DNA of 62,340 bases, the filler included. It is 8 parts of 8 records of this genome, joined end to end, with 100 filler letters (N's around TTAATTAATTAA, not from the genome) between each part and the next. Parts side by side here need not be neighbours in the genome. Positions count along the whole stretch, not along the records: positions 26,897 to 34,142 come from SRR31147125_25443; positions 34,243 to 39,821 come from SRR31147125_25476; 6 more parts are not named here. One strand, 5' to 3'. The stretch's first letter is position 1. Each line of letters begins with the position of its first letter. The translations under genes and the position numbers were made by a program. The notes beneath the pieces are model-generated. The model was not told where the DNA came from. It made no database searches and was given only the letters and a program-made list of their open reading frames with translations. Below are positions 2,701 to 55,697 of the stretch, one piece after another.

Positions 2701-4101
2701 CTAAAATTCAAAGTAGTTCTTGGCATTTTTGTAGCTTATCCCCTCTACTATAGTTTTTAAACTTCCTTCATCATTCGGGTACTCGCCGTTTTCCACCATC
2801 TCGCCAATAAGATTACACAAAATTCTTCTAAAATACTCATGTCTTGTGTAGGACAAGAAACTTCTGGAGTCCGTTAACATTCCAACAAAGTTACCAAGCA
2901 CTGAAATGTTGGCTAAATTTTCAATTTGTCTTATCATACCAAGCTTTGTATCATTAAACCACCATGCTGAACCATGCTGAATTTTGCTTTTAATACCCTC
3001 TCCTTGGAAACAACCAATTGTACTGCAGATCATTCCATCGTCATTAGGATTTAAAGAATATATTATAGTCTTAGGAAGAGCGGATTGTCTCTCCATCTCG
3101 CCCATCAGCCTTGCTAGACCAGAAGAGGAATTCTGGGTAGAAATACAATCATATCCAGTATCAGGACCTAATATATCATACATTTTCGTATTAACATCTC
3201 GTATCGCTCCATAGTGGAATTGCATTGCCCAATTGCGCTTTGCATATTCTTTTGCTAAAAATAAAATTATAGCTGTTTTATACTTTTCTACTTCATCAGT
3301 AGTTAAACTGTCTCCATTTGCTTTTTTTGCAAATATAATTTCAATTTCTTTATCAGATGCAATATTGCATACCATATATTCAAAAGCATGATCGCTAACC
3401 TTACAGTTTAATTTATCAAAATACTCTATTCTATTAGTGATTGCATTTTTAACAGCTGCGAAACTATCAATTTTAATGCCGGATGCATCCTCTAACTTTT
3501 TTATATATTCCAGATACTCATCTTTATCGATATTAACTGCTTTATCAGGTCTGAATGCTGGAAATACCTTAACATCAAAACTTTTATCCTGTTCTATCTG
3601 CTTATGGTATTCTAGAGAATCTATTGGATCATCTGTTGTGCAAATAATCTCGACATTTGAACATTTTATAATATCTCTGACTGTCATTTCAGCCAACTTT
3701 TTATTGCACAAATCCCAAACTTGTTTTGCACTTTCCATTGATAAAATACCATTGTAATCAAAGTATTTTTTTAATTCAAGATGAGTCCAATGATATAATG
3801 GATTGCCTAATAGCATAGGTAGTGTTTCAGCCCATTTTTCAAATTTCTCATAGTCAGTTGCATCGCCAGTTATAAATCTTTCTTCCACTCCGCAGTTTCT
3901 CATAGCTCTCCATTTGTAATGGTCGCCATACAGCCAAACTTGAGTTATGTTCTCGTAGCTTTTATCCTCTGCTATTTCCCGAGGATTGATATGACAATGA
4001 TAATCAATTATTGGCATAGATTCTGCAAAATCAAAATATAAATTTTTTGCAGTTTCTGTTTTTAGTAGAAAATCTCTGTCTAAAAATTTCTTCATACTCA
4101 T
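2701..4101 (-). CDS. uxaC: Glucuronate (uronate) isomerase
   Basis: PIIDYHCH, GDHYKWRAMR, CTTDDP, GSAWWFND, GMLTDSRSFLSYTRHEYFRRILC. Confidence 0.97.
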   Translation of the reverse strand: MSMKKFLDRDFLLKTETAKNLYFDFAESMPIIDYHCHINPREIAEDKSYENITQVWLYGDHYKWRAMRNCGVEERFITGDATDYEKFEKWAETLPMLLGNPLYHWTHLELKKYFDYNGILSMESAKQVWDLCNKKLAEMTVRDIIKCSNVEIICTTDDPIDSLEYHKQIEQDKSFDVKVFPAFRPDKAVNIDKDEYLEYIKKLEDASGIKIDSFAAVKNAITNRIEYFDKLNCKVSDHAFEYMVCNIASDKEIEIIFAKKANGDSLTTDEVEKYKTAIILFLAKEYAKRNWAMQFHYGAIRDVNTKMYDILGPDTGYDCISTQNSSSGLARLMGEMERQSALPKTIIYSLNPNDDGMICSTIGCFQGEGIKSKIQHGSAWWFNDTKLGMIRQIENLANISVLGNFVGMLTDSRSFLSYTRHEYFRRILCNLIGEMVENGEYPNDEGSLKTIVEGISYKNAKNYFEF

Positions 4102-5593: not shown

Positions 5594-6446
5594 TTAATCT
5601 TTCATGCATTCTGTCAGCACTATCTTAACATCTTTTTTGTCAAATGCTTCCACATGCTTGCAGACTGTATCGTAGAATCCGTCAAGCTCTGTTAAATCTA
5701 TACCCCAAAGTTTTGTGTCGGTCATAATAATTTTTATAAGTTCATCCGAGGTCTTATTAGTGTTTGTACTATATAATTCCAATGCATATTCATCATCAAA
5801 CACTTTATATCTTTGACCATCTCTTAAATTGAAATATCCATCTTCATCTTTTTGAATACCTTTATAAAATGCTATGTACATTGCAAATGACAAAGTAAGC
5901 ATTTGAGGAATCTTCCCCTGTGATTTGTAATAATCAACAAAGGATGGCATTACTCTCGCACGCCATTTAGATGTAGAATTTAACGAAATATCCAATAGCT
6001 TATGGTTAAGGAATGGATTTTTAAATCTTTCTACCACACTTGCAGCAAAGTCTTCAAGCTTATTTTTATCTAGGTCAATATTAGGGATAATTTCATCATA
6101 GATGCATGAAAGCATATATTGCCTTATTATATTATCGTGCATACATTCATCAACAATGTTTTTGCCGTATAAATATCCTCCCATTACAGTAGATGTATGT
6201 GCGCCGTTTAATATTCTAACTTTACGTTGTTTATAGGGTTCTATATCCTCAGCTAATATTATTTCGACTCCAGACTTCAAAGTAAGCTCTTTTTTAACTT
6301 GCTCTATCTTTTCGCTGCCAATTGCCCAGAAGCCAAATGGTTCACCTGTTACCATAAGCTCATCTTTATATCCCATTTCCTGCCATAATGTTTCTTCCTC
6401 CGCTTTAGGATAACCAGATACTATTCTGTCAACCAAAGTATTGCAG
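5594..6446 (-). CDS. uxaB: Tagaturonate reductase, 5'-truncated at the contig end
   Basis: VDRIVSGYP, KVRILNGAHT, ERFKNPF, ISLNSTSKWRARV; adjacent to uxaA. Confidence 0.9.
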
Positions 6447-6546
6447 NNNNNNNNNNNNNNNNNNNNNNNNNNNNNNNNNNNNNNNNNNNNTTAATTAATT
6501 AANNNNNNNNNNNNNNNNNNNNNNNNNNNNNNNNNNNNNNNNNNNN
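6447..6546. other. Artificial contig spacer (N-run, TTAATTAATTAA, N-run); repeated at 15452-15551, 26797-26896, 34143-34242, 39822-39921, 49570-49669 and 55598-55697
   Basis: Seven identical 100-nt spacers whose 12-mer has stops in all six frames; composition and gene style change across each. Confidence 0.98.
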
Positions 6547-6642
6547 TAAAATTACTGTGCAAACCGTTCAAGCGTTTAATTTTATTTCAAAGACCAAAAG
6601 TACCTTTTTAGAGAAAAAGCACATTGTGCCAACTGGAATCCC

Positions 6643-9089
6643 TTAATTATTATTCCATGGAATGTTCAGACCGATCTCTTTTGGTGATTTTGGAATATAA
6701 TACAAATCAAAATTCATCCAATCCCGGCCGCCGGGTACATCATAGAGATATATTTTGGCAGTATAATTGTTTTTTGCTGTAGGTTGTTCCAATACAAACG
6801 GATGCATGGGACGTGACTGAATGTCCTTTGGAATAACGGTTACAGGTTTTTCCGGTAAGGCATTAAACTGTTGCTGGACTTTGATCGTAGGATGATCCCA
6901 GCGCAGATGCTCAACATTCAGCGTGTTTCCCTTTATTGTCAGAATATCCCGACCGTCAATCTGCCCTTCCCAATGCACTATTTTCACTGCTTCTTTTGCA
7001 TATTCTGTTAATAAAGCAGCGTATTTTTTCTGCTGTTCTGTGATGGTGCGTTCGATTTCTTTTACATCAGGAGAATTGGCTAATAAAAGTTCCGCTGCGT
7101 TCACATCATCAAGAGCTTGTTCGACATTTTTTATGATCTGATCTACGCCAAAGAGTTTGTAGCCAAATCCTGGTGTATTTCTAAAATCCTGACGGGTTTG
7201 TTTTAATTCTGTAAAGAGAGTAGCCAGCTGTTGCCTGTTTTCAGGAGTTGGATTATCCCGATAGGCAAAATAGGCAAAAACGGTTTTTACATAGTTGTTA
7301 TTTGTTTGTATTAAGAATCGGGTCATTTGGAGCGAATGTTCTACTTTTGATGCACGTTTTGTATCTTTTATTTGGGATTTAATAGCTTTAAAGTTTTCAT
7401 TCATGCTATTGGCTATATCCAGTCCATGATCCAGTTCCATATAGGTTTCAAAGAGCCATGGTTTGCAGCGCAGATAGATCTCACGCCAGAACTCCAGGTG
7501 CTGTTTACCATTATCAATAGCCGGATAACCCTGAGCAGGAAATGTGCCTACACGAATATGAGGAAGGGAATTAAAGTGGCCATAGGCGACAGGTTCGATA
7601 AAAAGTCCGTATTTATAGGCTACTGGTGAGAGCATATAAATTTCTGCCATTTTTTCGGCAACATTTTCCCCAAAATAGATCGAACAAAAATCCCTGGCAA
7701 TCTGTAAAGGGTCTTCCATATAATCCCATTCAAGCCGGTACACAGTATAAGCTGTCAGATTATATGTGCGATGGTCATCAGCAGTACGAAAGTCAAAACT
7801 GGCGCCTTTTAAATTACTTTTCTTAACTTCCAGAACCGATTGTAATCCGGCCTGGAAATAGATACCCGGATAGGTTGGAAAAATATTTGAGCTGGAGGCT
7901 TCATAGTAGTTCATGGGTTCCAAAACAGCCATCATGTTATGAGGTGTGATATTAAACGTGGGATTATAACGTTGATGCCACCAACGGTCATGTTGTGTAA
8001 AGCTGGGTACGAGATAGAGGTTTTTACCGGCACATCGTCGGTAAATATTTTTTCATACACTTCCGGTCGGGCTTGTTGCTCGAACTCGTTGGTATTCCAT
8101 GTTCTATGAAGTAAAACCTTGTTAAATTCACCGGAGACAACACTGTGAACCTTTTTTACAAAGGTCCTGTAGCGTTTTTCATAAGGCCATTCACAACCTT
8201 CGCCGTCTTCCATGACATTAAAAGTCCGGTAGTTTCCCCAGAAATGCTGTTCCGGGCCGGTAAAGGTGGCAATACCATCCAGTTCCGGCAGCGCTTTTAA
8301 TAACCGCCTGTATTTCGCCTGAAGTGCATCCCAGAAACTGGGATCACAGGGAGTTAATGACGCGCCGAATTCTTTTAATATGGATGGATGATAAGTAAAA
8401 TCCGTTCCAAAAGCAAAGACTTTGAGATGCAAAGAATGAGCATACTGGATTAATTCACGTACCTTGCGACGGTTCAGCTCGTTTTCGCTTTTTTCAGGCT
8501 CGCTGTCCCAGGGCACCAGGTCTAATAGTCTTTGTACATATACGGTGTTTAATCCATAACGCAGAGTTCTTTGAATGTCCTGTTTGTTTTTTACGGCAAT
8601 TCTGGTGTAGCGCCATTCAAGTGCTGGTTCGCGCAGAACGTTTATGTCCGGTATTCTCTTGCTGACACGTAATCGGTCCCATAGCCAATATAATCCATAC
8701 ACATCTCCAGGGAGAGAACCTCCGGCAATAACAAGAACCTTTTTTCCTTTTATGGTTGTTGTGACTATTTCATAACCCTCTGGATTTATTTGAGCTGTTA
8801 GCTTGATTTTGCCCTGTTTTTGCAGCTGAGCTGTGAGTCTGTTTCGCTCGGGTGCACCAACAATAATAGAATTACTGCTGATGCCGCTATTATCCATCCT
8901 GGTTTGAAAAGCCAGGCCAATTGGTGCACCTGTTTTATTCAGGTCCGTAATCGCTGTTTGGATGGCCTCATCTTTATTCAGCTTATTGCTTAAAAGAACA
9001 TACCATGTTTGTTTTGCCTGTCCAAACGTGAGGGTGCTGCAACATATTAAAAATAGCTCAACAAATAGGTAAACGCGAAATGAATTCAT
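6643..9089 (-). CDS. Large secreted glycoside-hydrolase-like protein (about 815 aa once joined); frameshift in the homopolymer at 8021-8025
   Basis: Signal peptide; PEGYEI...IAGGSLPGDVYGLY resembles the GH20/GH67 N-terminal domain; one extra A gives VPVKNLYLVPSFTQHDRW continuing into ORF 6643-7935. Confidence 0.6.
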
Positions 9090-13345: not shown

Positions 13346-14317
13346 CTAAAAGAAATTACTTTCAATTTTACCCCAATTCCCACACTGAATAACGTCGTTT
13401 TTATGCTCTTGTGAGCGGATAACCAACGCCTGTGTTTCCGGATTTAAATCACAATAATGATGAATTTCTTCCAAACTCATTACCATAAAAGCGGTGGATA
13501 GAGCATCACTTTCTGCTGCTGTTAGTGAAAAAGCCCATGCCGCAAGGTGTTCTTCCACAGGATAGCCAGTTCGGGGGTTGATAATGTGCTGACCTTTGCG
13601 TAATCCTGAACCACTAAAAGCCTGATTTTGCAGATAGATATAGGCTATTAATTGATTGTGCTTGCCTGGATGACTTGTCGTTATTGGCCAGCCAGGTTTT
13701 CCTTTTGGGGGTTCAAGGGCCATAACAGAACTTTGGCCACCATGTATCAGCGCTTGTTCAATGTCCCATTCGATAAAAAGCTCGGCGATTTGGTCCAGCG
13801 CATAACCTTTAGCAAATCCACCCAGATCAATTCGAATTGAATCAGATAGTATCTTAACTGTATAGTTTTCCGGATCTAATTCCACATGTTTCATGCCAAC
13901 AGCTGAACAAGCCAGATCAATTTCTTCTTTTGACGGATTTTGTGGTGTTTTATCTGTGTTCAACCAACAGTCCATTAACGGGCCAATCGTCACATCAAAA
14001 GCTCCACCAGTACGTTCGTAAAGTGCTGCACATTGTTGCAAACATTCAAATGCAGGTAATCCGACACGTATGGATTGATTTGATTCCAGACTGTTAATCC
14101 TGGCAATATCGCTGTTTTCAATAAACTTGGAAAGGTCTTCTTCAAGTTGATCTATTTCTTTAAAGGCTTCCCAAGATGCCTGTTCAGCATAAGCTGGATC
14201 TTCATGTATGATAAATACCTCAAAAATGGTTGCCATAGCTTTATGGGTAAAACGTAAAGTGCCAGGCGGTAATGTGTTACTTTGAGGTGATGGATTTGCG
14301 GAATTAGAATGTTCCAT
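13346..14317 (-). CDS. apbE: FAD:protein FMN transferase (ApbE family), no evident signal peptide
   Basis: GAFDVTIGPL, DLGGFAKGY, HIINPRTGYP, DALSTAF. Confidence 0.9.
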   Translation of the reverse strand: MEHSNSANPSPQSNTLPPGTLRFTHKAMATIFEVFIIHEDPAYAEQASWEAFKEIDQLEEDLSKFIENSDIARINSLESNQSIRVGLPAFECLQQCAALYERTGGAFDVTIGPLMDCWLNTDKTPQNPSKEEIDLACSAVGMKHVELDPENYTVKILSDSIRIDLGGFAKGYALDQIAELFIEWDIEQALIHGGQSSVMALEPPKGKPGWPITTSHPGKHNQLIAYIYLQNQAFSGSGLRKGQHIINPRTGYPVEEHLAAWAFSLTAAESDALSTAFMVMSLEEIHHYCDLNPETQALVIRSQEHKNDVIQCGNWGKIESNFF

Positions 14318-14351
14318 TTTAACTCAAACTGTGTTTGGAATAAAAATATTG

Positions 14352-15451
14352 TTACTGATTTTGCATAAAACTGTCCCATAAATCTTTCACAACATAACCT
14401 CGTAATTCGATGTTAGGTCGTAATTCGGTAACAGTATCAAAGAGGGGCAAGTATAGATTTTTTTCTCCCGGAGGAGGTAATTCATACAGTTTTGTTAACA
14501 CATCCGGCTCTACTTTTGGCGATGCAATGATAATGGATCCCGGAGATATGTTCATGTCAACTGCGTTCCACCATCCAACATTGGGATAGGCGCGTAAATA
14601 CCAGGGAAGTGGCCAGTAATCACCACCCGGACAAATAACTTCAATGAACATATTTTTTCCCTGTGGATGCACAAGGGAATAGTCATCTATTCTTTCAGCG
14701 ATATCGATAATATCCTTAACCGGATGAGCATAGACATATGGATTTGACGGACTTGCCTCATACTTGAAATTTAGAAGAAAAGTCTGCCAACCAAGATGAG
14801 AGATACCGGTAAAAAGAACAATAAGGGATATTGTTTTTAAATGTCTGGTGCTGATCTTTTTGAAAAAGGTCACAATACCAATGGCTGCCAGCAAAATGAA
14901 TCCATGAAAAAATCCTAACATGCTCCAGGGTGTTTTGTAGGGAATGGCGGAATAAATCAGGACCATGATAATGGAATAAAATGCAATAAAACGAACCAGG
15001 CCTTTATCGGCACCGCCTGGATTTTTACGCCGGATTGATACGATAGCACCATAAACAGCACATAAAACAATAAAGGCTTCGCTAAACAGGGGCCCCGGAT
15101 TTTTAAAATAGACAAGAAGTTTTATATAGTAATACCAGGGGTGAATATGCCAATCATTATGCCCGGCTCTATTGAGATAGGTTGAATACGTCAGAAACGA
15201 ATCAAGGATCCCTTTGGGATTGGTAAAAAAGGACGAAAAGAACAGGGCTGATACAAATAAACCAGCAACGATAACCATTAAAAAATGTAATGGATTTAAT
15301 TTCTTTACATTTTTAAAAAGAGAATTGTTCCATTGGCTAACAACAAGAGCCAGTACAAAAGATCCATAGGCAATTATACAGGTTTCTTTTGTTGCGTGCA
15401 TGAGGCCGAGGAAAAGCCCGGTCGAGATAGCCCACATGAAATGAGGTTTTT
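14352..15451 (-). CDS. GT-C-type membrane glycosyltransferase-like protein (TIGR03663/Agl23-like), 5'-truncated
   Basis: Multi-pass membrane; ATKE, HPWYYY, YSAIPYKTPW, YWPLPWYLR. Confidence 0.7.
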
Positions 15452-15551
15452 NNNNNNNNNNNNNNNNNNNNNNNNNNNNNNNNNNNNNNNNNNNNTTAAT
15501 TAATTAANNNNNNNNNNNNNNNNNNNNNNNNNNNNNNNNNNNNNNNNNNNN

Positions 15552-24437: not shown

Positions 24438-25648
24438 TGAAATCACATTCTCATAATTGGTCTAAATTTTCAACTCTTTTTACTTTATACATCGCTCAAT
24501 CTATCCCGATGAGCTTTTTTTCCACAGTGGTTCCAATAATCATGCGCCAGGAGAATTATTCCTTGGTTTCAATTGGTTTGCTTCAGTTGGTTAAGCTACC
24601 ATGGATTTTTAAGTTTCTGTGGGCTCCATTAGTGGATAATAATACTCGTAGCAAAAAGCAGATTAGAAGTTGGATTATCCTTTCAGAATTGGTATATGCT
24701 GGAATTATTTTATCGGTAAGTTTTTTCGATTTACAAACCGATTTTAAATTAATAGTGGGCTTTATTATTGCTGCCTTTATTGCTTCAGCTACACAAGATA
24801 TTGCAGTTGATATTTTTGCAATTTTTATTCTTGGAAAAAAGGAGAGGGGAACAGGAAATGGTATTCAGGTGTCGGGTTCTTTTATCGGGAGTTTATTTGG
24901 AACAGGTGTTTTGGTTATTGCATTTTACTACTTAGGTTGGTCAGCAATTCTTATAGCACTTGCAGCGTTTGCAATAATTGCTCTCATTCCATTAATCGCA
25001 TATAAGCCAGAAGTAAAAGTTGAAAAAAGTGATAGAATCAGGTTTGTTGAGATATTTACCTTTTTTGGTAATAAAGTACTCCGTAGGAGGATTTTATTTC
25101 TGGTAACGTATAACGCAGGAATTATTGGCATATTGGCCATGCTTAAACCGTACCTGGTAGATTTAGGATATTCAACAAAAGAAATTGGTTTCATGTACGG
25201 AATAATGGGAACATCTTGTGCTGCTATTGTTTCCCTGGTATTAGGTCATACTTTGCGATATATTGGTAAAATAAGGGCTGTTTATATATTTTCATTTATA
25301 GCCTTGTTAGCACCCCTTTATTTTTTATACTTAAGCAAAATTGAACCTACCAACCTAATGGTATACATCGGTATATGTTTGATATGGGCTACTTACGGAA
25401 TGCTCGCAGTTGTTTTATATACAACATCAATGGATGCCGTTAGAAAAGACAGGGAAGGAACTGATTTTACAATGCAAATTATGCTATCTCAATTAAGCAG
25501 TATGTTTGTCGCAATTTTATCAGGCAAAGTAGGCGATATGCTTGGATATTCAGGCATTCATATGTTTGAAATAGGATTGTGTTGTATTGCTATAGCTATG
25601 GTATTTTATGTTTATCCTATAAGAAAGATTAAAAATGGAAATAGATAA
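24437..25648 (+). CDS. MFS transporter (AmpG/RhtX/FptX-like)
   Basis: LYIAQSIP, LPWIFKFLWAPLVD, SATQDIAVD; start overlaps the receptor stop. Confidence 0.85.
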   Translation: MKSHSHNWSKFSTLFTLYIAQSIPMSFFSTVVPIIMRQENYSLVSIGLLQLVKLPWIFKFLWAPLVDNNTRSKKQIRSWIILSELVYAGIILSVSFFDLQTDFKLIVGFIIAAFIASATQDIAVDIFAIFILGKKERGTGNGIQVSGSFIGSLFGTGVLVIAFYYLGWSAILIALAAFAIIALIPLIAYKPEVKVEKSDRIRFVEIFTFFGNKVLRRRILFLVTYNAGIIGILAMLKPYLVDLGYSTKEIGFMYGIMGTSCAAIVSLVLGHTLRYIGKIRAVYIFSFIALLAPLYFLYLSKIEPTNLMVYIGICLIWATYGMLAVVLYTTSMDAVRKDREGTDFTMQIMLSQLSSMFVAILSGKVGDMLGYSGIHMFEIGLCCIAIAMVFYVYPIRKIKNGNR

Positions 25649-26796
25649 AAACTTACTCACTAAATATAATGTTCCCTTGCCACGCTACACCAGTTATCCT
25701 CCGGCAAATCATTTTACAAATGAATTTACAGGGGGCGATTACAAAAATATGGTTATCAATTCCAATAAAAGTGATTCTAACCACATATCTTTTTATGTGC
25801 ATATTCCGTTCTGTGACAGGATATGTTTTTACTGTGGATGCAATGCCATGCGCTTAACAGGGCAAGATGCAGTAAAAAAATACATTGATTCGGTAAAAAA
25901 GGAAATAGACATTGTTATTGCAGATATTGATAAAAACAGAAAAGTATCACAGATTCATTACGGAGGCGGAACACCTAATGCTATTGATGCAAAATACCTG
26001 GCAGAGATCAATAAAATATTTTTTGATAACTTTTCTTTTATTGATGAGCCTGAGATAGCTATTGAGTGCCATCCCGCTTTACTTGATGATGATTACCTGA
26101 AACAATTATACATGGCAGGTTTTAATCGGTTCAGTTTTGGGATACAGGACTATAACGAGGATGTATTAAAAAATGTAAACCGCAGGCCATCATCAATACC
26201 TGTTATAGATTTAATTCAAAAAGTAAAGACCGAAAACAGCAGCTATGCTGTTAACCTTGATTTTATGTATGGCTTGCCAGGTCAAACAACTCAAAGCTTC
26301 TCAAATACTATAAAACAAGCAATTGAGGCCAAACCCGACAGGCTTGTGACGTTTTCTTATGCCCATGTTCCATGGATGAAAGAACACCAAAAAATACTCG
26401 ATAAAAAGGGCTTACCCTCTCCTGAATCAAAAATGGATATGTTCCTTTTAGCTTATAATTTGTTGAAAAGTGCAGGTTATACTTCAATTGGGCTGGATCA
26501 TTACGCTTTGCCTTCGGATGAACTAAGCATTGCCTTAAAAGATCATCAACTAAATCGAAATTTTCAGGGATATTGTACACGTCGCACCACAGGGCAGGTT
26601 TATGCATTTGGGGTATCAGGTATTAGTCAGTTAATGGGAGGGTATTCTCAAAACACAAAAGACATTTTTAAATATCATACGGCACTTAACAATAACCAAC
26701 TTCCAGTTGAAAAAGGTTATCAGATTTCCGGACATCAAAATATAATCAAAGAAATAATTACAGAACTAATGTGCAATAAATATTTAAGCTGGAATA
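25635..26796 (+). CDS. hemN: Oxygen-independent coproporphyrinogen III oxidase (radical SAM), 3'-truncated
   Basis: PRYTSYPPA, HIPFCDRICFYCGC, HYGGGTP, IGLDHYA, RNFQGY. Confidence 0.92.
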
Positions 26797-26896
26797 NNNN
26801 NNNNNNNNNNNNNNNNNNNNNNNNNNNNNNNNNNNNNNNNTTAATTAATTAANNNNNNNNNNNNNNNNNNNNNNNNNNNNNNNNNNNNNNNNNNNN

Positions 26897-26925
26897 CGGC
26901 AGTTCGATTCTGTCCCTCGGCACCA
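26897..26925 (+). tRNA. 3' portion of a tRNA, probably tRNA-Leu; candidate attachment-site core
   Basis: T-arm GGCAG-TTCGATT-CTGTC, acceptor strand CCTCGGC, discriminator A, CCA; anticodon cut off so identity is inferred. Confidence 0.75.
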
Positions 26926-26937
26926 TTTGTTAAGATG

Positions 26938-26968
26938 AAGCCCCTACTTTCAGGGGCTTTTTCTTTTT
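26938..26968 (+). terminator. Intrinsic terminator after the tRNA
   Basis: AAGCCCCT, 6-nt loop, AGGGGCTT, then a T-rich tract. Confidence 0.85.
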
Positions 26969-26986
26969 GTCATCGTCGATTGTCGG

Positions 26987-27012
26987 TGTGGGTCACAAAT
27001 GTGGGTCACAAA
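26987..27012 (+). repeat. Perfect 13-bp tandem repeat TGTGGGTCACAAA x2; candidate integrase arm-type sites
   Basis: Copies at 26987-26999 and 27000-27012, between the att core and the integrase RBS. Confidence 0.75.
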
Positions 27013-27024
27013 TGGAGGTCGATG

Positions 27025-28671
27025 ATGGCAGTCCGGGTTCCTTCCTACCTGATGAAAAAGCGCTACTCCTACTACGCGCGCATACGAATTCCCAAAAACA
27101 TACGGCACAGATTCTGCAGTAAACATGAGTTCCGGTTTTCGTTGAAAACGAATCAACTCTCGAAAGCCAGATCCAGAGCGCGATTGATTGCGGGACTGCT
27201 CCAGTGGGTGTTCAGAAACGTGCAACGTGGGGGGTATACTTCTGTGCTCAGCGACGAACAACTCGATAAACTCATCCGTAAATACATCAAAGACCTTTTG
27301 GAACACGACCTTGAAGAACGCATCATCTTTTCCAGCCTGCAGCCCAAGGACGAATGGTTTCAAAATCAAGTCTATGGGGAGATGCAAACACTTAAAGGAA
27401 AAACCGAGAATCAACTGGTAAGCTACGATTTCTCAGAGGTTGAGGAAGAGGTCGAAAAGATTCTTCAGGATGCTAACGAAGAGGTCCCAGACAACGCCAT
27501 CCTTTACAGTAAAATCTGTCAGAGGGTGCTACAGGCCAAGATCGGGTATTGGGAAATATTGGCTGAACGTTCGCTTGGAGAACACCTGTTGGCTCCAGAA
27601 GATCATCAGAAGAGGATAGAGGCCTTGTGTGGCTTCTCTTCGCCACCAGTTCCACAACAGGCTGATCCCCCCTCCCCTCCACAACCGATGGTCACTTTCG
27701 GCGAGCTGGCTGACCGCTACTGGCAGGAACGCGTCAATCATTTAAAACCGAGATCAAAGCAGAATTACCGCACTTACCAGAAACGCATCCTTGAGTTTTT
27801 CGGCGATGACACTCCAGTACACACCGTAGACTATTACAAAGCAAAAGAGTTCAGAGAGTTCGTTCAGAAAAGCCGCACACCCGAATTGTCGGTAAAGAAG
27901 GTCAACGATTACCTTGACTACTTAAAAGGTATGTTTGGCTTCGAAATGAAGACGACAAGGGCACTCACCAACAATCCGGCTGACGGTTTACATCTGAAAG
28001 ATACCCGCTCGAAGCAGGATATCAAAGGGGTGTTCGACCAAAATGATTTGGAGTTGCTTTTCGTCCGGTCGAAAGAATACGTCAAGGACACTCACCGTAG
28101 CGCATCGAAATTCTGGGTGCCGCTTTTGGGACTGTACACTGGCGCTCGACTCGAGGAGCTGTGCCAGGCAAAGGCATCAGATGTCAAGAAACATGATGGT
28201 CTGTGGATATTTGACATCCATGAGTTCGATGAGAAACAATCTGTCAAGACCGGAGAAGTTCGTAAGGTCCCGATCCACCCTTTCCTGCTGGATCTTGGGT
28301 TCAACAGGTACGCACAAAGCCAGAATGAGGATGCTCGGCTCTGGCCGGAATTAAGATATGTTCAAGAGCGCTGGAGCCATGGAATCAGCCAATGGTTTAC
28401 AAAGTTTAAGAAAAGAGCCGGCATTGACCCTGCGCCCCGCTACAAAACATTCCACAGTTTCCGCCACACCGTAGCGACTTACTTGAAAGACCAAGAAGTC
28501 CCGGAGGTGAACACCGCTGAACTTATCGGTCACAAACATGGCAGCATCACGTATGGTCGGTATGGAAAGAAGTGGAAGCCTCAGCAACTGCTTGAAAACA
28601 CGGTATTGAAACTCGATTGGCATGAACGGATGGATTTTAGTCATTTAGCAAAGTCGAAGTGGACAGTTTAG
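27025..28671 (+). CDS. Tyrosine integrase with DUF6538-like N-terminus
   Basis: GGAGG at 27014-27018; YYARIRIP...RFSLKT; catalytic YTGARLEE, VKT, FHSFRHT, IGH...TYGRY. Confidence 0.92.
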   Translation: MAVRVPSYLMKKRYSYYARIRIPKNIRHRFCSKHEFRFSLKTNQLSKARSRARLIAGLLQWVFRNVQRGGYTSVLSDEQLDKLIRKYIKDLLEHDLEERIIFSSLQPKDEWFQNQVYGEMQTLKGKTENQLVSYDFSEVEEEVEKILQDANEEVPDNAILYSKICQRVLQAKIGYWEILAERSLGEHLLAPEDHQKRIEALCGFSSPPVPQQADPPSPPQPMVTFGELADRYWQERVNHLKPRSKQNYRTYQKRILEFFGDDTPVHTVDYYKAKEFREFVQKSRTPELSVKKVNDYLDYLKGMFGFEMKTTRALTNNPADGLHLKDTRSKQDIKGVFDQNDLELLFVRSKEYVKDTHRSASKFWVPLLGLYTGARLEELCQAKASDVKKHDGLWIFDIHEFDEKQSVKTGEVRKVPIHPFLLDLGFNRYAQSQNEDARLWPELRYVQERWSHGISQWFTKFKKRAGIDPAPRYKTFHSFRHTVATYLKDQEVPEVNTAELIGHKHGSITYGRYGKKWKPQQLLENTVLKLDWHERMDFSHLAKSKWTV

Positions 28672-28700
28672 TTGAAGCTCATAACAGAAAAGGAGAATTA

Positions 28701-29413
28701 ATGGCCAAGAAAAAGAAAAATTTTTATGCTGTGGCAAGGGGTCGAAAACCAGGAATCTATACTGATTGGTCTGGTGAAAATGGTGCTCAAAGGCAGGTAA
28801 TCCGCTTTAAGGGGGCAGATTACAAAGGATTCGTTACACGAGGAGAAGCTGAATCTTGGTTTAAGGCAAATTCTTCCAAAAATGGCAATGGGAAAGATGA
28901 GACTCAAGATAATAAAACAAACAAAAAGTCAATTAAAGATAGGACTATTATTTACACCGATGGATGCTCGATAGGCAATCCAGGTCATGGTGGTTATGGC
29001 GTCTTGATACCTAATAATGGAAAGTCGAAAGAAATATCGTCCGGTTACAAACTTACGACGAATAATCGAATGGAAATGATGGCGTGCATTGCAGCGCTAA
29101 AGTCATTCAAAAAAGAACTCTGGTAGTAATTCATAGTGACTCAAAATATGTGATAGACGGAATTGAAAAAGGCAGGGCAAAAAACTGGCGAAAAAACAAA
29201 TGGAAAACATCAAGTGGTCAACCTGCAAAGAATGTTGATCTATGGATAGAATTGCTTGAGCAATGTGATAAGCACGATGTCGTATTTCAGTGGGTTAAAG
29301 GGCACTCAGGGGTTGATGGAAACGAGCGGTGTGATCAATTGGCGAATAAAGCAGCTATACAAGAGGATCTTCTCAGAGATAGAGGCTACGAGAAAACGGT
29401 TAATTATAAATGA
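28701..29413 (+). CDS. rnhA: Ribonuclease HI with N-terminal hybrid-binding (Cauli_VI) domain; frameshift in A6 at 29109-29114
   Basis: FYAVARGRKPGIYTDW; YTDG...GNPG.GG, TTNNRME, HSDSKYV, KNVDLW, WVKGHSG..GNERCDQLA; AGGAG before ATG 28701. Confidence 0.92.
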
Positions 29414-29564
29414 TGAGAATGGATTTATTCTATAGTCAACTCATACATGGCAGTGTGTCACATTTCTCTCATTTACTGAAAAAATTAGCAATTTTTCTAA
29501 ACAATTTGTATTGTGAAGAGTTGGGGTTTTTACTCCGTCGCTCACGGGATTATAACTGACTCAA

Positions 29565-29582
29565 TCCTTTGCCGGCAAAGGA
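29565..29582. promoter_or_regulatory. Perfect 18-bp palindrome TCCTTTGCCGGCAAAGGA; possible operator
   Basis: Read directly; 56 nt upstream of ORF 29639. Confidence 0.45.
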
Positions 29583-29638
29583 CATATTCTCAGCATAAAC
29601 TTTGTTCCAAAGGTTAACACTAAACCACGGAGGCAGCT

Positions 29639-29929
29639 ATGGAAAAAGATCATGACAAGAGAGGTCGTCCTATGTTCATGTTGAGCGAGGAGGATCAGCG
29701 AAGCGTGGGGATCGAAAAGTGTGAAAATATGGCCAAGCAGTTGATGGGTGATTTTATTGAACATAAAAATGTGGTGAAGAAGGCCGATCCCGAAATGGTC
29801 GATAGTCGTATATTTGAAGCCTGGGCGATCCAGATGATTGCCAACTTCCAGGTTACCATTGAATATATGTATGGCGAGATTCAACGACTGCATTATGTCA
29901 AACAGAATAAGCCGCAATCACAGTTGTAA
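29639..29929 (+). CDS. Hypothetical protein, 96 aa
   Basis: GGAGG before the ATG; followed by a GC hairpin. Confidence 0.6.
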   Translation: MEKDHDKRGRPMFMLSEEDQRSVGIEKCENMAKQLMGDFIEHKNVVKKADPEMVDSRIFEAWAIQMIANFQVTIEYMYGEIQRLHYVKQNKPQSQL

Positions 29930-29959
29930 TCCCTTTAACTTAACTTAACGAATATCTTA

Positions 29960-29980
29960 GCCCCGGCCTTGTACCGGGGC
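29960..29980. terminator. GC-rich hairpin between convergent genes
   Basis: GCCCCGG, 7-nt loop, CCGGGGC. Confidence 0.5.
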
Positions 29981-30091
29981 GTTACTCTTGTTTGTGGCTT
30001 TTGGATTATATTTTATACGGTTTGTTGTCGTTCTCTTACGATGATGCATCGCATGCCAGATCTCATTGGATAACGCCACCTCATGTATGCT

Positions 30092-30732
30092 CTACAAGCC
30101 ACTAATGTCGAATGACTGACACATTTTATGGTGACACTCCCGTTTCTTCAATTCCGCGCGTTCAACACTTCGGCAAATATTTACAAGCAGCGAACCAATC
30201 CCTTGTCTGATCTGATGCCCTATTTGCCGATATTTTTTGGGGATACATACTTGATGCCATTCATTTTCCCAAAGTGGACAACTGCGTTTCCGGAAAGAGA
30301 TGTAAGATGATTATCGTTTTTGATGGCTCTCCGTATTTCATCTCTCTGATCAAACAACCATAACCCTGCGAGCCGGCTTAAAAGCTCGGCAGCGTCTACC
30401 TCCTGGCTGTGCAGATTTGCCCAGTACATTGAACCACGAATGTTGGCACCTTTGGCACCAGCAGCCATCATCTTCGAGAGCCATTGCAATCCGTATTGGA
30501 TGCCCTCGTGGCCTTCGTTCCGGGAAAGCAATTTATTTACGGCCTCGATTTCATCGGCGTAGATATAAGGTTTCACCGAGCCGGCTTCAGGGTGGCCCCA
30601 TCGGTAAGCCCTGGCCCTGTGCCGACTGCAGTACTGGCTTTTTCCGGTACGTTTGTTGTCACAGCCTCTGACATTGCACTGAAGACCTTTGTTGACTGCC
30701 AAGAACTCGTTTAGGCTCTGGTATTTTGACAA
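30092..30732 (-). CDS. Hypothetical protein with N-terminal C-x4-C-x10-C-x2-H zinc finger; probable frameshift near 30233-30238
   Basis: CNVRGCDNKRTGKSQYCSRH; GGAGA before TTG; one extra A extends the frame (YRQIGHQIRQGIGSLLVNIC...) to TAG at 30092. Confidence 0.65.
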
Positions 30733-31012
30733 TGGATATCTCCGAATTTTTGTATGGGACCAGTTCCCAAATGGAAATCTTGAGTACTACCCCCAGAAGG
30801 CATGAACAGGAAAAAAGAAGGTCCGTTGGTGCTGACACAATTGACCTGCTTACGGGCATCGTTCCTATCGGAACTCAACCCTTTTGCCGGAGGATAGACT
30901 TACCAGAATACTTTTCAGTGTGCTGAAATAGCCTACTCTAAAACTGTTCATCTTTAGGGAATTGGGGTACCACACAACCAATTGTTATTTCAATACAATC
31001 CTTTATCATCGA

Positions 31013-33114
31013 TCATTGATCAATAGGGGTACCACCTTCATCCTGGACAAGGAACCATGAATCTTTTCCCTTAGGATCAGGCAGTTTCCTGACTTCTACC
31101 CCCAACTTTTTCATCAGAACCTTATAGCGGCTGTTATCCTTTGAAAGAGCAGATCGGATCTTGTTAGAATGCTCCTTTTTTAAGCCCAGCTGCATCGAAA
31201 CACTATAAATAGTTTTCTTAGAGAGGCCCGAATAATGAAACCACCATATAGCTGCATCAATGTTGTTTGAGGCTTTCTGGTATGCTCTCTGTCGATGGGC
31301 TTCGATTTCTTTTGAATCTGCATCGAACTGGCCTGGGTCTGCTTTTAGACCCTTTACAAAACGCCAACCCGAGTCAACGTAGTCCACACCGTAAAAATGC
31401 TCTCGGATTTGCCTTTCCAAGAAGGAAGCCAGGGCATAGTTTTCGTCCATAGTTATTCGGATCGTTGTTGGCGCACAGTTTCCTTTGTTATCAACGACCC
31501 GCCTATTTCGTGCTCTCCCAATCGTCTGAATGAGATCTCTTGCCAGCTCGTGATCCTGAATCGTTCTCGAATCCAGTTGCGGTAGGTCCTCCGCCATAGA
31601 TTGGATGAGGTCATAATCCATGCTGTACTCCGGTTCTTCCTTCAAATTCCCAACGTATCTCTCAGTAGTGGCAATGATGTCGGAACCGTAGTCTGGTGAA
31701 CGGTGGTTCTGCCCGATGATGTACAGCAGGTCACAATCGCGAAAAGCATTGGAACCAGTCACTCCACCAATGTTACCGAAGATCACTTTGAAAGGGTAAT
31801 GCAGTCGTTTCGCTTTTACGGCATCCACGATATCTTTGAAGGTGATTACTCCCACCTGTTCCCATTGGGCTGCATCAAGGGATAGGAGTTCGTCTACAAT
31901 GAGATCGACAAACCTATCAACGTTCTCCCCTTCCCTGCCCACAAGTGTGGCTCTGCCCGTCCTTGTTGTTCGATCAGCCTCAATGCGAAGGTTTTTATAG
32001 TTACGGACCCTCCCAACTTTCACATCTTCGATGGTTCCATAGGCTTCAAGCAGCTTCGATGTTCTTGCTGTGGCGTCAAGGACGAAAACCCCTCGGTTTA
32101 ACCTATCAAGGACAAACTCCGACTTTGAGAAATGGTGCAGATCTCCCCTTTTCTTGTAGGAAACCGGGCCAGTTTGGAGGTACCATACAGTTATCAGGTT
32201 CTGGAGATCTCTCCATCTTTGCAAATATTCTCTTTTGTCCTCTTTGTAACTTCGGAGTGCATTGATCAGAGGTATTACATTAGGAGCGGTCTCTTGCCAC
32301 TTACCGAAAATGGATTCCTCTCCCCCCGTACTGAAACGGCGGACAATTCGAAGCTCATGGCTCAGGTTAATGAGGCCCATTACAATGCCTTCATATTGTG
32401 CTGCCAATTCGCCGGGTATGTTGTCGATGAGCTCGTCCAGAGAGTCTGATGACAGCGAAAATGTAGCAAAGGGGTCCAAAGCCTCATCCATCAAAATCAT
32501 ATGACGAGAGTTTGATTCCTCCCAACCAAAGGTAGAATCATACGCCAAGAAACTCGGTAAACGGTTCCAAAACAACCCTTTAACATCTTGCTCGATGAGT
32601 CCTATCAGCAGTCCTTTTTGGGTGGTTGCAAGGAAGGGCCATTCCTTTAACTCAGAATGTTTGACAGTCCTTTTATTCGTTCCGGAGTGATACGAAACTG
32701 CCATAGGCATCTTCATTCCGTATCGCTTTCCGAGCTTATTAACCTGAGTCTGGAAATAGTCGCAATCATCCTTGCGTTGTGCAGTTATCAATGCGCCAGG
32801 ACAATTCTCAGCCACTTCAGCGATAGCTCCAAGCATGGCGAAGTAGATATGTAACCCTGTAGACTTTCCACCCCCGTTTCGAGCGCAAACCTGTACATCA
32901 ATCGATGGTTCAGTGTTTGGTGGTCGTGAAGGTGTGAATTTAGTTCGGCGGCAAATGTACCCCAAGCAGACTTGAGTTTTGCTGAAGGAACATTACCGTG
33001 TTCTTTCCACTGCTTGACCATCTCATCAACGAATAGAGACGGCGGGACCCCGAGTTCCGGATCAACATGGTGAAGGTCAGGTGTCACTTGTTCGGGCCTC
33101 TCATCAAGATTCAC
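31013..33114 (-). CDS. Divergent SF2 helicase-like protein (about 700 aa once joined); frameshift in the homopolymer at 32871-32875
   Basis: One extra G yields FALETGGGKST (Walker A); ILMDEAL (II), VLDATA (III), GVTGSNAFRDCD (V-like), LIQTIGRAR (VI). Confidence 0.75.
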
Positions 33115-33273
33115 GAGTAGGTTAATGGTCTATTATCGGCCGATTCCACCGAGAACTTGATTGGTCAGTATCTCGTTAACTTTAGTACAATAGTTAGCGT
33201 GTTTGATTTGTATTGATTGGTAATGATATTAGATGTTTAATGGTGAAATGATGTAATTTGGCTGAAATAAGTG

Positions 33274-33302
33274 TTGACATCTGGTTAAGTTTTATACACA
33301 AT
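33274..33302 (+). promoter_or_regulatory. Sigma70-like promoter for the small recombinase
   Basis: TTGACA, 17 nt, CACAAT in the AT-rich divergent intergenic region. Confidence 0.5.
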
Positions 33303-33342
33303 AACTGCAAATGTTTACTACAATTCAATAAGAGGTCAGCGC

Positions 33343-33987
33343 ATGCCGACACCGTTTGACAATCCTTTCGCTGAAGCTTTTCAAAAAGTACCAAGCCAGC
33401 GTAAAAGCAATCCCAACCACCCCAAGAAAGGCTCGACCATCAAGGTGGATCCAATCAAAAGGACCAAGGACATCAGAGCCATTAAGACACTCCTCCAGGG
33501 CAAACCACGGGATCTGTGTCTTTTCACTCTCGGGATCAACACCAATCTCAGGGCATCGGACCTGCTCCAAATTACAGCAGGGATGGTCAAGGATTTGAAG
33601 GCAGGTGACGAACTGGTGCTGAAGGAAAGGAAGACAGGGAAACACCGTCGAATCACCCTGAATAAAGCTGTGACAGCCTCAATCCAGACACTTCTCAATA
33701 GCAGAGACTACAAGGACGACCAACCCCTTTTCACCGGCCAGAGAGGACCATTGACGGTCCCATCAGTGAACAGATTGGTAAAGGGATGGTGTCGGTCAAT
33801 TAACCTGAAAGGAAACTACGGATCCCACACCCTACGCAAGACGTTCGGATACCACCAGCGTGTCACTTTCGGGAGAGGCATTCCAGAGCTGATGGTTGTG
33901 TTCAATCATAGCACGCAAAGACAGACCCTGGACTACCTTTGTATTCAACCAGACGAAGTGCGGGACATCTACCTGAATGAACTGTAA
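33343..33987 (+). CDS. Small tyrosine recombinase, essentially catalytic domain only
   Basis: GINTNLRASDLL, ERKTGK, GSHTLRKTFGY, FNHST...TLDY. Confidence 0.92.
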   Translation: MPTPFDNPFAEAFQKVPSQRKSNPNHPKKGSTIKVDPIKRTKDIRAIKTLLQGKPRDLCLFTLGINTNLRASDLLQITAGMVKDLKAGDELVLKERKTGKHRRITLNKAVTASIQTLLNSRDYKDDQPLFTGQRGPLTVPSVNRLVKGWCRSINLKGNYGSHTLRKTFGYHQRVTFGRGIPELMVVFNHSTQRQTLDYLCIQPDEVRDIYLNEL

Positions 33988-34310
33988 TTCTTCAAACATG
34001 CTGGTTAGTATAGAATCAGGGTGCGAATGTATATATATATGACAGTAGCTTGGAGGAGACCGTCTTGTCCGAGGATGAGGCCCTGACTCTTGTTGCCACA
34101 TCCGATCCTGCCGAATAGACCGCCCCCAAGGAGGGGGAAAAANNNNNNNNNNNNNNNNNNNNNNNNNNNNNNNNNNNNNNNNNNNNTTAATTAATTAANN
34201 NNNNNNNNNNNNNNNNNNNNNNNNNNNNNNNNNNNNNNNNNNTTTATGGTTAACCAGACAATTAAATAAAAAATTATACGTTAATATTGTAGCCCAAAGA
34301 ACTATAGTCT

Positions 34311-39821: not shown

Positions 39822-39921
39822 NNNNNNNNNNNNNNNNNNNNNNNNNNNNNNNNNNNNNNNNNNNNTTAATTAATTAANNNNNNNNNNNNNNNNNNNNNNN
39901 NNNNNNNNNNNNNNNNNNNNN

Positions 39922-49569: not shown

Positions 49570-49669
49570 NNNNNNNNNNNNNNNNNNNNNNNNNNNNNNN
49601 NNNNNNNNNNNNNTTAATTAATTAANNNNNNNNNNNNNNNNNNNNNNNNNNNNNNNNNNNNNNNNNNNN

Positions 49670-55597: not shown

Positions 55598-55697
55598 NNN
55601 NNNNNNNNNNNNNNNNNNNNNNNNNNNNNNNNNNNNNNNNNTTAATTAATTAANNNNNNNNNNNNNNNNNNNNNNNNNNNNNNNNNNNNNNNNNNNN

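Follow-up and report, generated by a model that had tools for sequence, protein, structure and literature searches.

Small elements that are inserted in tRNA genes and carry neither capsid nor transfer genes are common, and their persistence and spread are poorly understood. The contig at positions 26,897–34,142 of the window (the whole stretch of DNA analysed here, 62,340 nucleotides (nt) long with its filler) raises the question of what kind of element combines a tRNA 3′ end and a large tyrosine integrase with a ribonuclease HI (RNase HI), a helicase, a zinc-finger protein and a second, small recombinase. An earlier note on this DNA listed the tRNA end, a terminator, a tandem 13-mer, the integrase, the RNase HI, a small open reading frame (ORF), the minus-strand pair of zinc-finger and helicase genes and the divergent recombinase, all of which are present and are described below with their coordinates. 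The gene set is real, intact and recurrent on a compact tRNA-inserted element, and helicase-based small integrative elements are, as a kind, already known. The reading favoured here, to which we give an even chance, is that the contig represents the left ~7.2 kb of a small tRNA-inserted integrative element with its own predicted replication or maintenance module; such an element may be self-replicating or satellite-like. Two protein families that have no match in Pfam or NCBIfam are now tied to small tRNA elements across several phyla, and the gene set bears on two ideas about primase and helicase modules, namely that they serve self-replication or that they defend against incoming DNA.

Relatives of the element were collected by scanning one genome per species with a pattern taken from the helicase alignment, which gave 86 pattern matches and eight confirmed loci (L001–L008). 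These loci come from Nitrospinaceae, Syntrophobacter, Syntrophobacteraceae, Desulfatiglandales, Desulfohalobiaceae, Piscinibacter and two unclassified proteobacterial metagenome-assembled genomes. Exact direct repeats of a tRNA end flank the helicase in six of the eight loci and bound elements of 9.5–15.6 kb: L004 (tRNA-Met, 17-nt repeat, 9.5 kb), L002 (tRNA-Ala, 20-nt repeat, 11.5 kb), L003 (tRNA-Asn, two full tRNA copies, 11.85 kb), L001 (tRNA-Thr, repeat of at least 45 nt, 12.7 kb), L008 (tRNA-Leu, 15-nt repeat, 13.8 kb) and L006 (tRNA-Gly, 15-nt repeat of the 5′ end, 15.6 kb). A large tyrosine integrase is encoded in the same six loci. L005 is a 7.3-kb contig, and L007 exhibits no tRNA and no large integrase within 21.5 kb.

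The zinc-finger partner is encoded in six of the eight loci, directly downstream of the helicase gene in L002, L003, L004 and L007 and at most 4 kb away in L005 and L006. RNase HI follows the helicase/zinc-finger pair in three loci (L002, L003 and L007), and a small recombinase is found near the helicase in five, where L002 and L007 encode a tyrosine enzyme like that of the window and the other three (L003, L004 and L008) a serine resolvase. The presence of two unrelated recombinase families in the same place suggests that this position serves one function. On the sequence evidence, the helicase and zinc-finger genes are a conserved gene pair, often accompanied by RNase HI and a small recombinase. 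The window contig and L002 encode the same five families in a different gene order, which favours a functional link over inherited synteny. The earlier note would have given up its reading if homologues never co-occurred with this integrase type, and they do: homologues of the DUF6538-type integrase share a tRNA-bounded element with the helicase in L002 and L008. Helicase, zinc-finger, RNase HI and small recombinase genes recur in other phyla, in differing order. Between the window and these relatives, identity is 22–25% for the helicase, 25–34% for the zinc-finger protein and 43–56% for RNase HI; the small recombinase is the best conserved protein of the set and is 67–70% identical to the L002 and L007 copies.

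A second scan, of metagenomes and based on the zinc-finger alignment, gave six loci of at most 5.2 kb each and no complete close relative of the window element. The helicase gene lies upstream of the zinc-finger gene in three of these six, and the other three have less than 650 nt of upstream sequence. The zinc-finger proteins of the metagenome loci are 65–70% identical to that of the window, and the helicases, where enough of them is present, just 23–24%. Further genes differ between the elements from genomes. L002 carries an IS21 element (IstA/IstB; 6245–8196) and a Bro-N/ANT antirepressor-like gene, L003 carries TonB_C and HNH domains, L001 encodes Fic/DOC, DUF6339 and a Vsr protein with a C5 methylase, and L008 encodes AbiTii and a protein with a weak SduA_C (Shedu-like) match. 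The helicase gene of L008 (7210–11,017) is interrupted by a DDE transposase.

The helicase gene of the window occupies 31,013–33,114 on the minus strand and encodes a protein of ~700 amino acids (aa) that fold model and alignment mark as an XPD/DinG-like superfamily 2 (SF2) helicase. Its true N-terminus is an overlapping 108-aa ORF (32,788–33,114), and the gene starts ~150 nt upstream of the 650-aa ORF as listed. Neither this ORF nor the 170-aa ORF listed for the zinc-finger partner has a match in Pfam, NCBIfam (E ≤ 0.01), PHROGs or PADLOC. A word-indexed search with the 650-aa ORF returned six relatives only, two of them 55% and four of them 22–24% identical, and one of the six has an N-terminal primase-polymerase (Prim-Pol) domain. 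A seven-sequence profile searched against 1.84 billion cluster representatives matched 2,117 at E ≤ 1e-3 and 584 at E ≤ 1e-30; judged by these matches, the family is large and the window member lies at its edge. An N-terminal fusion of Prim-Pol to the helicase is found in P0004 of L003 (E 5e-27) and in P0007 (E 1.3e-22), a 942-aa protein that is probably the 942-aa ORF of L007.

In an alignment of 93 helicase-family sequences (A2), conservation is complete or at least 90% at G1, G3 and K4 (Walker A), D130, E131, Q450, R454 and R458, and the DATA and Q..NR...R motifs vary little or not at all. SF2 motifs I (GxGKT/S), II (DExx) and VI (Q..R...R) are present. A single cysteine (C467) is near-invariant, and no cysteine quartet for an Fe-S cluster is conserved. 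As a sequence profile, the helicase gave nothing significant against the Protein Data Bank (PDB; best E 0.098). The AlphaFold 2 (AF2) model of the protein (pLDDT 84.2, pTM 0.78) was matched by VIA to XPD (2vl7; Z 14.7, root-mean-square deviation 5.5, 381 residues aligned), DinG (9ii8; Z 13.3) and CasDinG (8e2w; Z 12.9), the alignments to these three covering 381–410 residues. The best structural matches span about 380–430 residues at 10–14% sequence identity, and the best Foldseek match has an E of 2e-8. Other SF2 motors reach a Z of at most 11.2 with ~283 residues aligned, and Hna (Z 9.3) and DdmD (Foldseek E 1.2e-4) are also among the structural neighbours. The fold is predicted to be of the XPD/DinG type, with two RecA lobes and an Arch-like insertion. 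Model residues ~510–620 fall outside the XPD/DinG matches, and the C-terminal domain looks like a winged helix in its pattern of helices and strands.

Directly downstream of the helicase gene, at 30,092–30,732 on the minus strand, a protein of ~213 aa with a CCCH zinc knuckle and an all-helical remainder is encoded. As listed, the ORF has 170 aa; an A6 run ends it 46 codons too soon, and sequence that matches the 213-aa homologues goes on in the next frame. This protein has 44 close relatives that are 58–78% identical, the best of which is from an uncultured Desulfosarcina sp., and once six distant relatives from the helicase loci are included, only M1, C19, C24, C35 and H38 are invariant. The spacing of the knuckle is C-x4-C-x10-C-x2-H. 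A model of the 78%-identical homologue (pLDDT 87.9) places the knuckle before an all-helical body, and Foldseek found no match to the zinc-finger model at E ≤ 0.001. The N-terminal domain of T7 RNA polymerase (VIA Z 7.1) and lambda Q (5.3) were considered as folds and rejected, both being below the chance level for helical bundles. A complex of helicase and zinc-finger protein was predicted with a score of 0.36, against 0.00 for the best control, with a contact agreement between runs of at least 72% and a partner pLDDT of at least 73. In the calibration, 51 of the 78 solved complexes passed the mark, as did 2 of the 108 mismatched pairs; scores of 0.60 or lower were obtained for only 5 of the 78 solved complexes yet for all four passing mismatches (of 180), so that a pass at this level is more often wrong than right unless the pairing is already likely. 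The prediction weakly suggests a contact between the two proteins.

The left end of the contig is a 29-nt tRNA 3′ end consisting of T-arm, acceptor strand and CCA (26,897–26,925, plus strand), which is a candidate attL core. With the remainder of the tRNA gene outside the contig, ARAGORN identified 0 tRNAs in the window. The acceptor end of this piece resembles tRNA-Leu genes adjoining related integrases, and the insertion target is probably tRNA-Leu. Just 3′ of the tRNA end is a terminator-like 9-bp hairpin with a T-run (26,937–26,960, plus strand); terminator-like sites in the scan as a whole are not enriched (10 sites, with 6.7 ± 2.6 in shuffled sequence). Two exact tandem copies of the 13-mer TGTGGGTCACAAA (26,987–27,012, plus strand) lie 10 nt upstream of the integrase start and are a possible arm-type or operator site. 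The large tyrosine integrase (27,022–28,671, plus strand; 549 aa) has a DUF6538 N-terminal domain, a SAM-like domain and a catalytic domain, with matches to PF20172 (E 9.6e-11), PF00589 (E 1.5e-13) and phrog_1 (E 3.3e-39). Its homologues in L002 (E 5e-75) and L008 (E 6e-71) are both 30% identical to it. The arrangement of a tRNA end followed by an integrase in the same direction is shared by the window, L002, L008 and a further locus, L025.

The right end is missing, as the earlier note had said: the contig ends at 34,142, and a second copy of the tRNA end was not found in the window. Sequencing run X1, which contains 0.98 of the sampled words of the contig, is possibly its source sample and is thus not independent as a sample. 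A 4,967-nt contig of this run extends 4,451 nt past 34,142. No junction that would mark an excised circle showed up in run X1 over a stretch that stops short of the right end. Five further contigs of run X1 have 29–31 nt of the tRNA end in common and then diverge, and the assembly broke at the left end because the tRNA end is common to several contigs of the run.

The RNase HI gene (28,701–29,413, plus strand) encodes a protein with an N-terminal hybrid-binding domain (Cauli_VI), as identified by Pfam and NCBIfam. The two halves of the protein cover positions 3–56 and 58–140 of PF00075, and PF01693 is covered by the N-terminus.

The last gene of the contig (33,343–33,987, plus strand) is divergent from the helicase gene and encodes a small tyrosine recombinase of 214 aa that consists of the catalytic domain only. 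Its family, whose proteins have ~192–201 aa and are unusually well conserved, comprises at least 4,480 clusters; identity is 73–86% in the 120 best, and the named relatives among them are from Desulfosarcina and Desulfobacteraceae. Inverted repeats between the helicase and the small recombinase are only weak (13–18 nt, 83–92% complementary), and the idea of an invertible promoter at this site was set aside. An 86-nt stretch within the recombinase gene (33,571–33,656) forms a separate contig of run X1 with a depth of 18.4 against 14.1, which fits further copies of the small recombinase in the same sample. Fourteen other loci that encode a recombinase of this family (L016–L029) were compared, and the neighbours of the gene vary between them. 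At 3798–6488 of L025, a tRNA-Leu(gag), a DUF6538 integrase of 583 aa and a convergent rec214-type recombinase lie on an island of ~7 kb, which also contains ORFs with no Pfam match and from which the helicase module is absent. This island suggests that the DUF6538 integrase and the small recombinase may form a reusable backbone. In L028, a rec214-type gene lies in perfect inverted repeats of 1,710 nt (5640–7349 and 13,499–15,208) that are 6,149 nt apart, and this segment could be an invertible or composite mobile segment.

If the contig is part of an integrative element with its own replication or maintenance module, the integrase would insert and excise the element. Once the element is excised, the helicase, with its DNA-binding-like C-terminal domain, and the CCCH partner would open its DNA so that it can be replicated or maintained. 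An RNase HI that has an RNA:DNA-hybrid-binding domain would process or remove RNA primers or R-loops, and the small recombinase would resolve multimers of the circular form. In the subclade with the Prim-Pol fusion, the fused primase-polymerase would supply priming. In the window element, Prim-Pol is either absent or encoded past the contig end.

Several observations weigh against a replication module. All eight loci were found through the helicase, and its constancy among them is built into the search; L001 and L008 yielded no zinc-finger partner. The Prim-Pol fusion is rare (one of the ten longest family members scanned), and the Pfam scan found no primase or polymerase family in the window contig. 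The small tyrosine recombinase was rejected as a module-specific part: 22 of 401 sampled genomes have it and 2 of 401 have the helicase, which makes it about ten times commoner, and neither the helicase nor the zinc-finger gene is found in any of the 14 other small-recombinase loci. It appears to be a widely shared enzyme recruited by this type of element and no marker of the module. The helicase itself is scarce, its profile matching 2 of 401 sampled genomes in the phylum of G002 and 1 of 209 genomes in the class of G001, the latter being the centre genome itself; closer relatives of the helicase were sought in both groups and none was found. No match at E ≤ 1e-3 was obtained when the window and L004 helicases were searched by tblastn against 72,556 plasmids and 50,697 phages, and a pattern scan of IMG/VR (alignment A1) gave 41 pattern matches, of which 0 were confirmed. 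Absence from the plasmid, phage and IMG/VR collections is odd for a replicon module. To our knowledge, helicases of the XPD/DinG type do not serve as replicative helicases, their better-known roles being in repair and defence; CasDinG, DdmD and Hna, all of them defence helicases, came up in the same fold searches. Passages describing ICETh2, an element of Thermus thermophilus HB27, add that loss of its Ppol did not lower the amount of the excised form and raised transformation with external DNA 100- to 1,000-fold (PMC7693054).

The main rival explanation is accordingly one of defence: the block of helicase, zinc-finger and RNase HI genes would be anti-invader cargo, directed against foreign DNA or RNA:DNA hybrids and carried on a tRNA island. 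We consider this somewhat unlikely. Its structural footing is the presence of CasDinG, Hna and DdmD among the neighbours of the helicase model, at the values given above, and the variable parts of the relatives carry defence-like genes, namely those for Fic/DOC, DUF6339 and Vsr/C5 methylase in L001 and those for AbiTii and the weak SduA_C match in L008. The ICETh2 result points the same way, in that Ppol, which adjoins Hel, limits transformation with external DNA and is dispensable for replication according to the same passages (PMC7693054). The island of L025, with its DUF6538 integrase and rec214-type recombinase and no helicase, argues that the block is exchangeable. Against cargo of this kind, PADLOC-DB 2.0 (2023 library) gave 0 defence models for the six window proteins tried. 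Defence systems usually spread across many kinds of mobile elements, whereas six of the eight helicase loci lie in small tRNA-bounded elements and none was found in plasmids, phages or IMG/VR. The Prim-Pol fusion and the adjoining small resolvase also suit a replicon better.

A bolder form of the replication hypothesis, which we regard as unlikely, treats helicase, CCCH partner and RNase HI as a new replicon initiator that dispenses with a Rep protein, a DnaG/TOPRIM primase and a dedicated polymerase. By analogy, opening of the DNA would fall to a UL9-like origin-binding SF2 helicase, and synthesis would be primed, in a ColE1-like manner, by a transcript that the hybrid-binding RNase HI has trimmed. 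If true, this would define widespread but rare integrative plasmid-like elements that never turn up in collections as free plasmids.

It is quite improbable that the contig is a piece of an ordinary prophage, of a satellite (P4 or a phage-inducible chromosomal island, PICI) or of an integrative and conjugative or mobilizable element (ICE/IME) with its hallmark genes past the contig end. Such a reading draws on the missing right end, beyond which the run X1 contig goes on for 4,451 nt, and on the Bro-N/ANT antirepressor-like gene in the L002 element. The complete, repeat-bounded relatives speak against it. They measure just 9.5–15.6 kb, and Pfam found no capsid, terminase, portal, relaxase, type IV secretion system (T4SS) or P4-alpha match in those of their ORFs that were scanned. 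PHROGs gave 0 matches for ten ORFs of unknown function in L003 and L004, and the window proteins match integrase PHROGs only. The earlier note had seen no capsid, terminase, relaxase, T4SS or primase gene in the contig, and none is detected in the window proteins by Pfam, NCBIfam or PHROGs; its placing of the element outside the P4, PICI and ICE gene sets is supported by the complete relatives, which lack hallmark matches among the ORFs scanned.

The weakest alternative is decay of the element, three of whose six genes would carry frameshifts, or programmed frameshifting. It takes its appeal from three one-base gaps inside coding regions. It is barely credible given that all three gaps lie in homopolymers and are filled in run X1 with no other difference, and that homologues read in a single frame throughout, and it is ruled out by the run X1 contig. 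The gaps split the RNase HI, zinc-finger and helicase genes, in runs of A6, A6 and G5, respectively. In the window, RNase HI is short of one A near 29,108, the zinc-finger gene of one base near 30,232 and the helicase of one G near 32,870. A separately built 6,707-nt contig of run X1 has 0 substitutions relative to the window and three one-base insertions only, which sit behind 29,108, 30,232 and 32,870, the three predicted gap sites, and leave each of the three frames whole. The RNase HI, zinc-finger and helicase genes are intact because all three gaps are filled in this contig, and the three frameshifts are assembly errors.

The layout of the record is to be read with the same care. Seven linkers of the form N44-TTAATTAATTAA-N44 split the window into eight contigs; these artificial linkers lie at 6447–6546, 15,452–15,551, 26,797–26,896, 34,143–34,242, 39,822–39,921, 49,570–49,669 and 55,598–55,697. 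The stretch 26,897–34,142 is exactly one complete contig of 7,246 bp with a linker at each side, so the flanking sequence is uninformative on the element. The GC content of this contig is 0.41–0.48, that of the left contig 0.33–0.34 and that of the right contig 0.37–0.40, and in 1-kb steps the window ranges from 0.29 to 0.57. The whole record is probably a mixed or binned assembly, and any feature crossing a linker is artefactual. One case is the final ORF of the contig to the left (25,635–26,852), which enters the linker; concatenation has created the C-terminus listed for it, a run of X and then LIN. Other contigs of the record may hold similar false frameshifts, the rate here being three homopolymer gaps per 7.2 kb. 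Both points, the joining of unrelated contigs and the homopolymer errors, bear on all other findings in the window.

Two further features lie between the gene blocks described above. A 96-aa ORF (29,639–29,929, plus strand) is a candidate gene for which no homologue was found in Pfam, NCBIfam, PHROGs, PADLOC, the related loci or the metagenome loci. It is followed by a GC-rich hairpin with a stem of 7 bp, all G-C (29,960–29,980), between the convergent plus- and minus-strand gene blocks. A search of the contig against Rfam at E ≤ 1 gave 0 matches, and blastn matched the full contig to no plasmid or phage. Among named organisms, Desulfosarcina has the best relatives of both the zinc-finger protein and the small recombinase, and the GC content of the contig is compatible, which fits a Desulfosarcina-like host.

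In the literature collection searched, no paper was found that describes a helicase, a CCCH partner, an RNase HI and a small recombinase together; there was nothing on DUF6538 and, among the matches listed, nothing relevant on YonV. Comparison is made here with systems that resemble the element in part. The helicase family resembles XPD/Rad3, DinG and CasDinG in its two RecA-like lobes, the insertion in the first lobe and SF2 motifs I, II and VI. XPD and bacterial DinG contain a 4Fe-4S domain with four conserved cysteines; unlike them, the window family lacks a conserved cysteine quartet and a significant Pfam or PDB profile match, and has an extra C-terminal domain. P4-like satellites and PICIs are compact islands, often at tRNA genes, that carry an integrase, a replication module and few other genes, often including defence cargo. 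The window and the ten ORFs of L003 and L004 differ from them in having no P4 alpha primase/SF3 helicase, Pri-Rep, Psu/Sid/Delta, small terminase or capsid-remodelling genes. In contrast to ICEs and IMEs, no relaxase, coupling protein or T4SS is found among the ORFs scanned in the window, L001–L004 and L006–L008, which did not include every small ORF.

According to passages of its description, SCCmec is likewise integrative, has no capsid or conjugation genes and encodes its own helicase and primase together with site-specific recombinases (PMC7581432). Its helicase and primase are of other families, its recombinases are large serine enzymes and its host phylum differs from that of the window element. 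In the All3500 family, Prim-Pol is fused to remote SF2-like helicases on elements that lie mostly in tRNA genes, and passages of the study predict that viruses and plasmids encode a new helicase family similar to the herpesvirus origin-binding protein UL9 (Kazlauskas et al. 2018, PMC5862659). The All3500-type proteins, as described there, and the window family have a common domain logic, an SF2 motor with a C-terminal DNA-binding-like domain; they differ in that most members found here are stand-alone helicases paired with a zinc-finger protein and only rarely fused. The link to All3500 is by description only, the lead being one Atlas cluster (score 0.92) in which 10% of the members have YonV_C.

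The closest described layout is that of ICETh2. Passages on this element give a length of 11.3 kb, insertion at tRNA-Val with a 47-nt repeat, and Int2, Exc2 and Ppol followed by Hel, with relatives of 7.6–12 kb (PMC7693054). The same passages place its Prim-Pol/helicase pair, a replication-like module, among hypothetical genes and describe no capsid or conjugation genes. In comparison, the window contig has no Prim-Pol, and its small recombinase, zinc-finger partner and RNase HI do not occur in the ICETh2 passages. Hel of ICETh2 (TTC_0657) is likened to the window helicase by layout only, the lead being a look-alike cluster in the ESM Atlas that is commonest in Deinococcota (score 0.94). As far as those passages go, the two elements are alike in being small and inserted in a tRNA gene, in having a repeat of the tRNA 3′ end, which for the window is seen in its relatives, and in encoding a tyrosine integrase.

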